A stretch of 30,676 nt of DNA from Omnitrophica WOR_2 bacterium RIFCSPLOWO2_01_FULL_41_12 (GTDB lineage: Bacteria; Omnitrophota; Gorgyraeia; Gygaellales; Profunditerraquicolaceae), in the NCBI GenBank assembly GCA_001805765.1, contig MHGW01000042.1, forward strand, positions 1-30,676. Reading direction: 5' to 3'. Numbering within the stretch: position 1 is the first letter of the stretch; each line of letters opens with the position of its first letter. A program made the translations under genes and the position numbers. The notes under the pieces were generated by a model. It was not told the origin of the DNA. It searched no databases and saw only the letters and a program-made list of their open reading frames with translations. Positions 13,741-17,292 of this stretch are shown in pieces.

Positions 13741-16445
13741 TGCATGTTGAGCTTCCCAGTCAATATAACCCCAAAGAAACCGAAAATAAGTGGTATAAGT
13801 TTTGGCAAGAGCATAATCTATTTTCCGCAAAACCTAATCCTACCAAAAAACCTTTCTGCATAGTTATTCCTCCGCCCAATGTTACAGGTATCCTGCATAT
13901 GGGCCATGCCCTTAATAATACTATCCAAGATATCCTCATTAGATACCATCGGATGAAAGGCGAAGAATCTTTGTGGATGCCGGGAACTGACCATGCCGGT
14001 ATTGCCACGCAGAATGTAGTGGAGAAGGCGATTGCCAAGGAAGGATTAAAACGCCAGGATTTAGGTAGAGAGAAATTCCTGGAACGCGTCTGGCAGTGGC
14101 AGAAGGAATACGGCTCTACGATTATCCATCAACTGCAGAAACTGGGCGCATCCTGCGATTGGCAGAGGACGCGCTTTACTATGGACGAAGATTATTCCCG
14201 GTCAGTGATAGAGGCTTTTGTACGGTTATATGAAAAGGGACTGATTTACCAAGGTAATTATATTATCAACTGGTGCCCTCGGTGTCAGACTGCGCTTTCT
14301 GATGAAGAGGCGCCGCATAAAGAAATCCAAGGGAATCTTTATTATTTAAGATATCCTTTAAAGCAGGGACAGTCCCTTTCAGGGACAGTCCCTGCTTATA
14401 TTGTAGTGGCTACTACTCGTCCAGAAACTATGCTCGGCGATACCGCAGTAGCAGTAAATCCTAAAGATAAACGCTATAAGAAATATATTGGCCAAACTTT
14501 AATTTTACCTTTGATAAACCGGGAAATAAAAGTAATTGCGGACGCTATGGTAGATATGAAGTTCGGCACAGGCGCAGTCAAGGTAACGCCAGCGCACGAT
14601 CCCAATGATTATACATTGGGCAAGAAACATCATCTTGAATTTGTAAATATAATGTATGCTGATGCACGCTTAAACGAAAATGCCGGAGAATACAAGGATA
14701 TGGATAGGTTTGCAGCCAGAGATATTATCCTGAAGGACCTAAAAGAAAAAGGGCTATTGGAGAAAATAGAGCCGCATCAGTTGTCCGCAGGCCATTGTTA
14801 TCGTTGCCATACCATCATTGAGCCATATTTATCCAAGCAATGGTTTGTAAAAATGTCACCCCTTTCCAAACCCGCATTGGAAGTGGTGAGAAAAGGAAAA
14901 ATTAAATTCTATCCTAAACGTTGGACTAAGGTTTATCTTAACTGGATGGAGAATATCCAGGATTGGTGCATCTCGCGCCAAATCTGGTGGGGACACCGCC
15001 TGCCTGTTTATTATTGTAAAAACTGCCCAAATCTTCAACAAGCTGGTATTATTGTTTCCAGAATAAAGCCAGATAAATGTCCGAGCTGTGGCTCAACGGA
15101 TATTTATCAGGATGAAGATGTCTTGGATACCTGGTTTTCCTCGTGGCTGTGGCCGTTCGCCACTTTTAAAAATGGAGAAGATTTAAAATATTTCTATCCT
15201 ACCTCAAGTTTGGTCACTGCTCCGGAAATAATTTTTTTCTGGGTGGCGCGCATGATTATGGCGGGATTAGAATTTATGCAGGATATACCCTTTAAAGATG
15301 TTTATATCCATGGTACTGTACGCGATATTGAAGGTAAAAAAATGTCCAAATCCCTGGGGAATATTATTGACCCCTTAGAGATTATCCATGAATATGGCGC
15401 AGATGCCCTGCGTTTTAGCTTGATATCTATTACCGCCCAAGGCCAGGATGTGTTTTTATCCAAAGAAAGGTTCCAACAAGGCAGAAACTTCGCCAATAAA
15501 ATCTGGAATGCCTCCCGCTTTATTTTAATGAATCTTACCCAGGGACTGTCCCCGCAGGGGACTGTCCCTGCTATAGATTTATGCGTGTTTTTTAAGAAAG
15601 AGGACCTGGATATTGTCAACCGCTGGATATTAAGTAGGTTTTATACTGTACTGAAAGAGACTAATAAAAATTTAGAGGCCTATAAATTTAATGAGGCGGC
15701 AAATACCTTATACGGCTTTTTCTGGCATGAATTCTGCGATTGGTATTTAGAGATGATTAAATCCGATATTAAAAACCAGCGCAATCAAGTAGTGATGTAT
15801 AAAGTCTTAGAAAAATTCTTAAGGCTGATACACCCTTTTATGCCTTATATTAGCGAAGAAATCTGGCAGAGAATATATAATCAGGGACAGTCCCCTGGGG
15901 GAGGAGTCCCTGGAAATAGTATTATGATTCAGCCCTGGCCGCATGTGCAGGAACAGATGATCGATAAAAAAAAGGAAGATAAGTTGAATCTAATATTTGA
16001 GATAATTGCCAGCATCCGCAATATACGCCAGGAATTAGAAATACCACTCCAGAAGGAGATAGGGGTAATTATCGCCTCCCCAAATCAAGAAAACAGAAAA
16101 CTTATTGAAGAAATGTCCGGCCAGATAAAAAAAATAGCCAAATTAAGCAATCTCAATATTAATGCAAAATACAGCCACGTTAAATCCAGCGTTAGTGGCG
16201 TGATAAAGGATGTGCATGTAACCTGCCTGCTTTCTGGAATAATTGATTTGGAAAGAGAGAAAGCAAAGCTGGATGCACGTATCCGAGAATTAGCAGCACA
16301 GATAAGCGCTAAGAAAAAAACTTTAAGTAATAAAGCATTCTTAAAGAAAGCCCCGGAAGAAATAGTAGAAAAAGAGAGTGATGGACTTAAGGAATTAAAT
16401 GGTATTTTAAAGCGGATTAAGGAAATTAAGAATGAATTACAGTAA
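13740..16445 (+). CDS. valS: Valine--tRNA ligase, with three in-frame repeat insertions
   Basis: PPPNVTG, HMGH (HIGH), TTRPET, FGTGAVKVTPAHD, WCISRQIWWGH, KMSKS and a C-terminal coiled coil. Confidence 0.98.
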   Translation: MHVELPSQYNPKETENKWYKFWQEHNLFSAKPNPTKKPFCIVIPPPNVTGILHMGHALNNTIQDILIRYHRMKGEESLWMPGTDHAGIATQNVVEKAIAKEGLKRQDLGREKFLERVWQWQKEYGSTIIHQLQKLGASCDWQRTRFTMDEDYSRSVIEAFVRLYEKGLIYQGNYIINWCPRCQTALSDEEAPHKEIQGNLYYLRYPLKQGQSLSGTVPAYIVVATTRPETMLGDTAVAVNPKDKRYKKYIGQTLILPLINREIKVIADAMVDMKFGTGAVKVTPAHDPNDYTLGKKHHLEFVNIMYADARLNENAGEYKDMDRFAARDIILKDLKEKGLLEKIEPHQLSAGHCYRCHTIIEPYLSKQWFVKMSPLSKPALEVVRKGKIKFYPKRWTKVYLNWMENIQDWCISRQIWWGHRLPVYYCKNCPNLQQAGIIVSRIKPDKCPSCGSTDIYQDEDVLDTWFSSWLWPFATFKNGEDLKYFYPTSSLVTAPEIIFFWVARMIMAGLEFMQDIPFKDVYIHGTVRDIEGKKMSKSLGNIIDPLEIIHEYGADALRFSLISITAQGQDVFLSKERFQQGRNFANKIWNASRFILMNLTQGLSPQGTVPAIDLCVFFKKEDLDIVNRWILSRFYTVLKETNKNLEAYKFNEAANTLYGFFWHEFCDWYLEMIKSDIKNQRNQVVMYKVLEKFLRLIHPFMPYISEEIWQRIYNQGQSPGGGVPGNSIMIQPWPHVQEQMIDKKKEDKLNLIFEIIASIRNIRQELEIPLQKEIGVIIASPNQENRKLIEEMSGQIKKIAKLSNLNINAKYSHVKSSVSGVIKDVHVTCLLSGIIDLEREKAKLDARIRELAAQISAKKKTLSNKAFLKKAPEEIVEKESDGLKELNGILKRIKEIKNELQ
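14364..14393. repeat. Double-palindrome repeat, in-frame copy 1 in valS (QGQSLSGTVP)
   Basis: CAGGGACAGTCCCTTTCAGGGACAGTCCCT. With flanks (14361-14397, AAGC/GCTT) it forms a near-perfect long hairpin. Confidence 0.9.
15540..15569. repeat. Double-palindrome repeat, in-frame copy 2 in valS (QGLSPQGTVP)
   Basis: CAGGGACTGTCCCCGCAGGGGACTGTCCCT. Positions 15541-15569 are the exact reverse complement of 8132-8160. Confidence 0.9.
15882..15911. repeat. Double-palindrome repeat, degenerate in-frame copy 3 in valS (QGQSPGGGVP)
   Basis: CAGGGACAGTCCCCTGGGGGAGGAGTCCCT has 4 mismatches over 29 nt to the intergenic copy, all in the second half. Confidence 0.82.
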
Positions 16446-17292
16446 AGTTATTCATCTAGTCAGGAGTAGTTTAAAGGAAGATATCGGAAAAAGAGATATT
16501 ACTACAGGACTGTTTATCCCAAAAGATAAGATGGCCAAGGCGGTAATATTAGCCAAGGAGGATTGCGTAGTTTGTGGTATGGAGATTGCTAAAATTGTAT
16601 TCAAGGCTACAGATAATAAAATTAAATTTAAATCTTCTGCTGCAGACGGCCAGCATATAAAAAAAGGAAAGGTTATGGCCCGGATACAAGGTAAGGCCAG
16701 GTCCATTTTAATTGCGGAACGAACCGCCTTAAATTTTTTAAGCCATCTTTGCGGCATCGCTACTTTAACCAGAAGATTCGTTCAGGCCATTAAGCCCTAC
16801 CGAGTAAAGATTATGGATACGCGTAAGACCATTCCCAATCTTAGGGCTTTACAGAAATATGCGGTCAGAATAGGAGGAGGGATTAACCATCGGTTTAAAT
16901 TGGATGAGATGGTATTGATTAAGGACAATCACTTAAAGGTTATAGGTGATAGGTTATGGGTTATAGGTTTTAAAAAAATAAAAAATAAAATCCCGACTAA
17001 AATCAAAAAAGAAGTAGAAGTAAAAACACTTCAAGAATTTAAGCAGGCTTTAAAAATCAGAGCAGATATAATTATGTTGGATAATATGAAGTTAAGCGAT
17101 ATAAAAAAAGCAGTTATGATAAGAAACTGCCTATCACCTAACACCTATCACCCAACACCTAAGCTAGAGGCTTCAGGTGGTATTACTCTGAAAAGTATCA
17201 AAAAAGTAGCAGCCACAGGCGTAGATATGATTTCCGTGGGAGTATTAACTCACTCCGCAAAATCGATTGATATTAGTTTAGAGGTTTTGTAG
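16432..17292 (+). CDS. nadC: Nicotinate-nucleotide pyrophosphorylase (carboxylating)
   Basis: [45 protein letters not shown] and ISVGVLTHS. Confidence 0.96.
16940..16967. repeat. Heptamer tandem array in frame in nadC
   Basis: TTATAGG TGATAGG TTATGGG TTATAGG, translated as [10 protein letters not shown]. Confidence 0.8.
17130..17157. repeat. Heptamer tandem array in frame in nadC, inverted relative to 16940-16967
   Basis: CCTATCA CCTAACA CCTATCA CCCAACA, translated within [18 protein letters not shown] is the reverse complement of TGATAGG. Confidence 0.8.

Follow-up and report, generated by a model that had tools for sequence, protein, structure and literature searches.

In-frame heptamer arrays occupy two loop slots of nadC in an Omnitrophota genome

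The window analysed here, the whole stretch of 30,676 nucleotides taken from contig MHGW01000042.1 of Omnitrophica WOR_2 bacterium RIFCSPLOWO2_01_FULL_41_12, carries on its plus strand the gene nadC (16432-17292), which codes for quinolinate phosphoribosyltransferase. The gene was taken from the list of open reading frames and matches the Pfam families QRPTase_N (PF02749, E 5e-24) and QRPTase_C (PF01729, E 3e-59), and the names of its nearest NadC homologues are Candidatus Omnitrophota or Omnitrophica. Its start is overlapped by the end of valS, and uvrB begins 3 nt past its stop codon. Two arrays of 7-nt tandem units lie within nadC on the plus strand, each called by TRF at period 7. The first, arm 1 (16933-16969, 5.3 copies), has the consensus (GGTGATA/GGTTATA)n, the antisense form of CCTATCA, and its units at 16940-16967 read TTATAGG TGATAGG TTATGGG TTATAGG. 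The second, arm 2 (17130-17162, 4.7 copies), holds (CCTATCA/CCTAACA)n in sense orientation; its units at 17130-17157 read CCTATCA CCTAACA CCTATCA CCCAACA, and it is also called by TRF as period 14 with 94% matches. A second short heptamer run, AAAAAAT in 2.6 copies (16973-16990, plus strand, TRF), sits directly behind arm 1 and encodes KKIKNKI. Orthologues that bear arm 1 also encode IKNKI-like residues there, and site 1 of nadC may thus be a composite of two arrays.

The sequence-only reading of the window had described the two arrays as a pair of mutually complementary heptamer runs in the frame of nadC, and every coordinate and count in that description holds on recheck. An inverted-repeat search pairs 16937-16967 with 17130-17160 over 31 nt, of which 24 (77%) are complementary, with the arms 162 nt apart. 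Both arrays are read in the nadC frame without stops, the arm 1 peptide following LIKDNH and the arm 2 peptide preceding LEASGG, while translation of the open reading frame places EVEV and LDNM in the 162 nt between them. The heptamers were also rightly set apart, as a repeat class of their own, from the GC-rich palindromes of the window. A degenerate three-unit pattern matches the window five times, three on the plus strand and two on the minus strand, always within the two nadC arrays, compared to no match in 100 dinucleotide shuffles. As a separate observation, the arm 1 units at 16943-16960 read AGGTGAT, an extended Shine-Dalgarno sequence, and the ATCACCT of arm 2 resembles the 3' end of 16S rRNA.

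To judge from the alignment and the structure model, the enclosed 162 nt (16968-17129, plus strand) are host sequence, the conserved core of NadC, rather than cargo. They encode the EVEV strand, a helix, the IIMLDNM strand and a further helix, and residues E194, E196, V197, D217 and N218 of this core are invariant in the NadC alignment. In the AF2 model (mean pLDDT 84) the core contains the strands E192-197 and E213-217; the arm 1 region (residues 166-182) is modelled as coil with pLDDT below 50, and the arm 2 region (residues 233-243) as coil. The spacer from KDNH to ExE measures 26 aa in proteins with arm 1, including that of this genome, and 19 aa in 89 of 122 Omnitrophota-like loci. From LDNM to LEASG there are 25 aa here and in 92 of the 122 loci, with a minimum of 18 aa among them, and mostly 17 or 20 aa in loci of other phyla, which came from a contig search with the full NadC alignment, too general a pattern, and served solely as an outgroup for spacer length. 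Since the spacers step by exactly 7 aa, each array corresponds to a loop slot of +7 residues (21 nt, three units). The reading frame is kept in all orthologues, with a slot length fixed at +7 aa, and the same slots are filled by wholly different peptides, such as YRLPITDYRLP, TPHTVHRKP and VHGSRFMAQG. The slot at site 1 appears prone to repeats of other periods as well: where arm 1 is missing, a tandem 10-mer, AAGGTTACGG, is present in 2.5 copies in locus L082 of relative G001, and a similar pair, AGTTACCGGA, in L131.

NadC homologues at 60-73% identity often encode arm 1-like and LSPNTYHLTPK-like peptides, and the DNA of over 100 orthologous nadC loci carries heptamer arrays at the same two sites with differing units. 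In arm 1 the unit is GGTGATA/GGTTATA in this genome and in L111-L113, GGTCATA in L117, L241 and L242, GGTTCTA in L116, L239 and L240, and GGTTCAT in L123. Arm 2 is built of five perfect copies of CCTATCA in L112, of CCTAAGA in L117, of CCGCACA in L123 and of four copies of TTACCGA in L135. Units are more alike within one array than between orthologues. Thus read, the nadC arrays display concerted evolution at the DNA level, in which whole units of the peptides change, in each of the three frames: in L117, three units of arm 2 have changed from C to G, turning S into R, N into K and H into D, and in L116 three units of arm 1 have changed together. The sequence-only reading would have been undermined by orthologues that encode the same peptides without the periodicity; orthologues do encode similar peptides, but the heptamer periodicity is kept.

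Most close orthologues have both arms, yet this does not extend to every gene of the clade, in which one-arm or no-arm orthologues are common. All four combinations of presence and absence are found, including arm 1 alone (P0062, P0081, P0105), arm 2 alone (P0067, L082, L124, L131, L135) and neither arm (L086, L091, L003). In a tree computed from an alignment whose array columns were masked, nadC genes with and without arrays are intermingled; L112 is sister to L131 (support 0.84), and the clade with GGTTCTA is sister to the arm 1-free pair L124 and L091 (support 0.93). An unrelated feature of another nadC locus, the metagenome contig L246 (1076-1270), is the uvrB gene downstream of nadC, which encodes a 1214-aa product with matches to Intein_splicing and LAGLIDADG_3, an intein-bearing UvrB.

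The coding capacity of such arrays is limited by stop codons. A run of at least three heptamers is read in all seven phases, and therefore a unit whose cyclic sequence includes a stop trinucleotide is non-coding on that strand. Read in sense, CCTATCA gives no stop, while its complement TGATAGG contains both TGA and TAG. Codon 8 of arm 1 is TGG where the array's own pure consensus gives TAG, and the same codon is TGG in all the arm 1-bearing orthologues shown whose consensus holds TAG (9 of 10, the unit of L123 being without a stop). In L112, codon 7 of arm 1 is TTA where a pure array has TGA. Codon 7 of arm 2 is TAT in this genome, where the pure CCTAACA unit gives TAA, and across orthologues it is TAT, AAA or CAT where a pure CCTAACA or CCTAAGA array has TAA. 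On these comparisons, the degenerate positions in T(T/G)AT(A/G)GG are read as scars of stop removal, and the "conserved" Trp of arm 1 as a TAG repaired to TGG. A pure antisense array has TGA and TAG in every frame, and thus a clean arm 1 of at least 21 nt could not have arrived without inactivating nadC. Throughout the genome, in-gene arrays whose unit is stop-free on one strand only number 11 with the sense strand stop-free and 3 with the antisense strand.

The genome assembly examined comprises 704 kb in 52 contigs, with 41% GC and about 64% completeness. Period 7 accounts for 123 of its 478 TRF rows. A strict self-comparison over periods 4 to 15 gives 27 arrays of period 7, six of period 14, three of period 15 and 0-2 of the others. 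When merged, the heptamer arrays number 85, 49 of them inside long open reading frames and 28 intergenic; the in-gene counts are approximate, because open reading frames were called by length only, without a gene caller. Hosts checked against Pfam are ordinary enzymes, namely PrmC, a heptosyltransferase, PyrK, CobT and a class-I glutamine amidotransferase (GATase). An inverted partner with a score of at least 16 was found for 14 arrays, all intergenic, and a direct partner at that score for none. The loops of these strong inverted pairs measure 0-11 nt in all but one, whose arms are 405 nt apart and flank a PF05635 gene. The nadC pair, with a score of 13.5 and a gap of about 160 nt, is the only clear complementary pair inside a gene that brackets coding sequence, and the genome-wide partner scan revealed no comparable complementary partner for the other in-gene arrays of this genome. 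Across the phylum, the three-unit CCTATCA pattern is patchy, appearing in 18 of 301 sampled genomes, in a few of them in multiple copies.

Two side observations concern the intergenic arrays. The exceptional pair (contig C12, 8121-8589, locus L192) is formed by the inverted arrays TAAACTC... and ...GTTTAGG, which clamp a gene for a 120-aa PF05635 protein (23S rRNA intervening-sequence protein, a four-helix bundle). Intergenic hairpins that hold no gene and have near-identical arms, on contigs C4 (16550-16685), C7 (5783-5923) and C23 (3839-3973), look like empty PF05635 cassettes.

PrmC serves as a second case. Its gene (contig C44, minus strand) carries arrays at two loop sites, before DIGTGSG and before NPPY, and these sites are also filled in many relatives, with units that differ between orthologues. 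In most orthologues the units of the two sites are unrelated, and in L208, from relative G007, GGTCTAC occurs at both sites in direct orientation and gives RSTVYGL at each. Inverted pairing is therefore no rule for in-gene arrays. Near its N-terminus, the PrmC of L208 further carries about 37 additional residues inserted in frame, which include VIARSEATKQS.

The general class to which the nadC arrays belong is known, namely heptamer microsatellites similar to the STRR of cyanobacteria, and the resemblance pointed out in the sequence-only reading is well founded: the units are tandem and 7 nt long, they form many dispersed arrays of several unit families, and between genes they build inverted hairpins. 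STRR have reportedly been described inside a functional gene, that of RNase P RNA, by Vioque in 1997. The cyanobacterial heptamers are arranged in tandem, in several dispersed families, and include inverted intergenic hairpins, for example between hupS and hupL; their function and origin are unknown (PMC2670836). The likeness thus comprises arrays of period 7, several unit families, dispersal and frequent inverted hairpins between genes. The hosts of STRR, however, are heterocystous cyanobacteria, whereas here the host belongs to the Omnitrophota and the units are others, so that the arrays are not STRR in the strict sense. In contrast to STRR, about half of the arrays of this genome lie in frame in internal enzyme loops, with unit variants that remove stops, and what separates the nadC arms is not a short loop but 162 nt of conserved coding DNA.

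Small dispersed repeats (SDR) are said to have been found embedded in heptamer arrays of Nostoc by Elhai and colleagues in 2008. A comparable arrangement, a GC-rich palindrome of about 20 nt in frame inside a heptamer array, is observed in L115 (1501-1812), L118 (1501-1812), L186 (nadC site 2) and L198 (PrmC site B), but is absent from the nadC of the window. These palindromes are of the type CCTGCCTG.CCGG..CAGGCAGG, encode peptides such as PAGRQ or PACPVGR, and differ from the GGGAC-W-GTCCC palindromes in the valS of the window. To our knowledge, their sequence is unrelated to the cyanobacterial SDRs.

Rickettsia palindromic elements are selfish single palindromes of 100-150 bp that occur in frame in genes for essential proteins, at surface regions. 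The nadC arrays are likewise tolerated in frame in an essential gene, but they are two tandem arrays of 31-37 nt, 162 nt apart, and not one palindrome of 100-150 bp; sequence resembling these elements was not found in the nadC arrays.

Heptamers are an over-represented class of long simple sequence repeats in many bacteria, as the work of Mrazek et al. (2007) is cited in Rehm et al. (2015, PMC4692102). The GGGAATC arrays of Xanthomonas, some of them inverted with the potential to form stem-loops, vary in length and sequence between close relatives, for which polymerase slippage has been proposed (PMC4692102). They share with the present arrays the excess of period 7 and the inverted pairs, yet they are intergenic and G-rich (G4-forming), whereas the nadC arrays are coding, not of the G4 type, and confined to slots of fixed length. 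The TAACTGA repeats of Beggiatoaceae sometimes occur inside open reading frames, where stops in all frames allow coding only in the reverse orientation (MacGregor 2015, PMC4679880). The stop-codon logic is the same as that of the nadC arrays, but the in-frame copies of TAACTGA are found at protein termini or in hypothetical proteins, whereas the Omnitrophota arrays occupy internal loops of proteins such as NadC, PrmC, CobT and PyrK and recur as slots from one orthologue to the next. No literature was found on heptamer arrays in Omnitrophota, and in-frame, slot-bound, self-homogenising heptamers in enzyme loops were found in no paper.

The reading preferred here, with a probability of about 0.65, is that the nadC arrays are lineage-wide, STRR-like, in-frame heptamers in loop slots, which have been acquired and lost independently and do not constitute a mobile inverted pair. 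Heptamer arrays would, accordingly to this reading, pervade Omnitrophota genomes, usually as hairpins between genes, and inside genes would survive only in frame and in loop slots that tolerate any peptide. Both NadC slots of this genome would hold the TGATAGG/CCTATCA family, arm 1 antisense and arm 2 sense, and the arms would be complementary because one unit family lies in opposite orientations. Selection would only have removed in-frame stops, in arm 1 by turning TAG into TGG and TGA into TTA, in arm 2 by turning TAA into TAT. A process at the DNA level, either slippage or conversion, would keep the units alike within each orthologue, and this homogenisation would cause the encoded peptides to drift as whole units. 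Arms 1 and 2 would have been gained and lost separately. A further candidate, genome-wide drift or homogenisation of the unit family as the cause of the similarity of the arms, is unsupported in this genome: contigs C51 and C52 carry AGGTCTT-type (C-type) arrays alongside the G/T-type arrays of nadC, so that there is no single genome-wide unit variant.

The complementarity of the arms might go beyond what a shared unit family provides. The predicted long-range stem between arm 1 and arm 2, proposed in the sequence-only reading, can indeed form: the minimum free energy of -51.3 compares with -34.4 +/- 4.2 kcal/mol for shuffles (z -4.0), and the stem is present in both the minimum-free-energy and the centroid structures of 16925-17172. 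Many long-range pairs between the ends are predicted in most orthologues, and loci without arm 1 give similar counts. A matrix of ungapped complementarity assigns the arm 1 of the window a score of 22 with the arm 2 of L112 vs 13.5 with its own arm 2; the permutation p of 0.0015 obtained from this matrix was rejected as a sign of covariation, as it reflects lineage structure and the own pair is not the best.

Covariation was followed in an alignment of 17 orthologues in the fixed register i+j=293. With kinship uncontrolled, 80.6% of the cells pair between arms of the same genome; exchanging arms among orthologues gives 78.3 +/- 0.8, the observed share being reached in 7 of 2000 permutations, and the covariation score, subject to the same limit, is 0.132 vs 0.10 for arm swaps (5 of 2000 as good). 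Columns 46/247, which represent unit position 5, hold G:C in nine sequences, C:G in L117, L241 and L242, and T:A in L239, L240 and L120, and the change at this unit position is also seen at columns 39/254, 53/240 and 60/233. The pairs are broken in L116, L243, L244, L246, L123 and L121. Eight loci, L239-L246, were fetched after the peptides had been read, four of them (L239-L242) on account of peptides suggestive of covariation; with four of the 17 sequences picked in this way, the statistics are inflated. In an unselected tally of peptides, His in arm 1 goes with Asp in arm 2 in 3 of 3 cases and Ser with Asn in 3 of 4, and the Tyr, Asn and Arg variants are uncompensated. The support of the tree backbone is 0.3-0.4, and hence there may have been only two or three independent events of covariation.

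Taken from these alignments, the covariation is suggestive of local coupling between the nadC arms, which is possible. The small excess of complementarity within genomes would most likely stem from nearby inverted arrays serving as templates for each other, through conversion or template switching, and less likely from a selected mRNA stem. Such conversion, or template switching of the quasipalindrome kind, would yield "compensatory" changes without selection, and the three Watson-Crick types at columns 46/247 fit a selected stem and conversion equally well. A stronger proposition is that the arms are actively kept complementary, so that when a unit of one arm changes (G to C or G to T), the complementary change spreads through the units of the other, 160 nt off within an essential gene; this is a tentative idea that is rather unlikely to hold. 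If it were true, such upkeep would represent either an intragenic, long-range mRNA stem made of microsatellites and maintained by selection or directional inverted-repeat conversion of coding DNA, by which two protein loops are rewritten together.

Among the explanations that compete with the preferred one, the selected stem survives best. It holds that complementarity is selected because the arms pair, in the valS-nadC-uvrB transcript or as single-stranded DNA, into a long-range stem that governs how nadC is stabilised, processed (RNase III being one candidate) or translated. The predicted stem in both structures, with its z of -4.0, would be expected from it, as would the exchange of G:C, C:G and T:A that affects unit position 5 across several units and clades, and the His-Asp and Ser-Asn pairs of the unselected tally. 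Yet either arm stands alone in many orthologues, and the partnerless arm 2 arrays of L131 and L135 are as pure as partnered ones, which means that the purity and maintenance of an array need no stem. Six orthologues break the pairs, the arm 2 of L112 is a better partner for the arm 1 of the window than the window's own arm 2, the putative stem lies wholly within translated sequence, and the other in-gene arrays have no partner. With the inflated statistics, the weak tree backbone and the small number of events also counting against it, a selected stem is improbable.

In the sequence-only reading the arrays were attributed to a system that inserts as inverted pairs and provides a substrate for the inversion or deletion of the 162 nt; gene inactivation or phase variation would be the outcome. 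The intergenic arrays of this genome are usually inverted pairs, and the pair with the 405-nt gap around the PF05635 gene is a cassette with inverted heptamer arms, so that cassettes of this build are present in the genome. The enclosed 162 nt of nadC, however, are the ancestral NadC core in every orthologue and phylum, so that nothing can have been inserted around them, and the separate gain and loss of the arms, in all four combinations, speaks against insertion as a pair, as does the inactivation that a clean antisense arm 1, with TGA and TAG in any frame, would bring about. In a mobile cassette with inverted arms, whether IVS-like or MITE-like, the arms would enclose non-host DNA and come and go jointly, and neither applies to the nadC pair. 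Other in-gene arrays are partnerless, inverted-partner scores of at least 16 being confined to intergenic arrays, and the PrmC sites hold units that are unrelated or in direct orientation. That reading would have given way to arrays occurring elsewhere singly and in random orientation, and this is the case in part, as arrays in genes are mostly single.

Rearrangement of the enclosed segment was sought in assembler contigs that hold the locus, from four groundwater and soil runs. Joints at 16968/17129 that would indicate inversion or deletion were absent from the contigs of the four metagenome runs, in which rare rearrangements could be missed, and these contigs likewise displayed no indels within the nadC arrays, of the kind by which a phase-variable contingency repeat would shift the frame; one contig spans the whole stretch without any difference. 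The sole joint listed by the search belongs to the nadC of another organism. An identity of 24/31 over 31 nt is also poor for homologous recombination. Insertion as an inverted pair, together with its role as a rearrangement substrate, is thus very unlikely. The arm 1-type array recurs between unrelated flanks on many other contigs, in one case apparently as a short-loop hairpin in which CCTATCACCTA follows some 20 nt downstream, which means that the unit family is widespread in the community.

It is scarcely probable that the peptides are conserved protein motifs with an incidental DNA periodicity, the swap of Asp/His to His/Asp reflecting contact between residues of the two loops: arm 1-like and LSPNTYHLTPK-like peptides do recur in many orthologues and the D/H to H/D exchange resembles a swapped polar pair, but the changes are unit-wise in all three frames at once (L117, L116), wholly different peptides fill the same slots, both loops are low-confidence coil, and the Trp lies exactly one step from the TAG of the unit.

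Tandem repeats of 7 bases are usually seen as intergenic curiosities. In the preferred reading, that of independently acquired and lost arrays in loop slots, they would here be long-lived, self-homogenising tenants of enzyme loops. The nadC pair raises the question of whether arrays in opposite orientation, about 160 nt apart, interact via templated conversion or an RNA stem. Part of the sequence of essential proteins would be set by the dynamics of repeats and the avoidance of stops, and not by protein function, which would matter for annotation, for the inference of functional residues from conservation and for the origin of new loop sequence.
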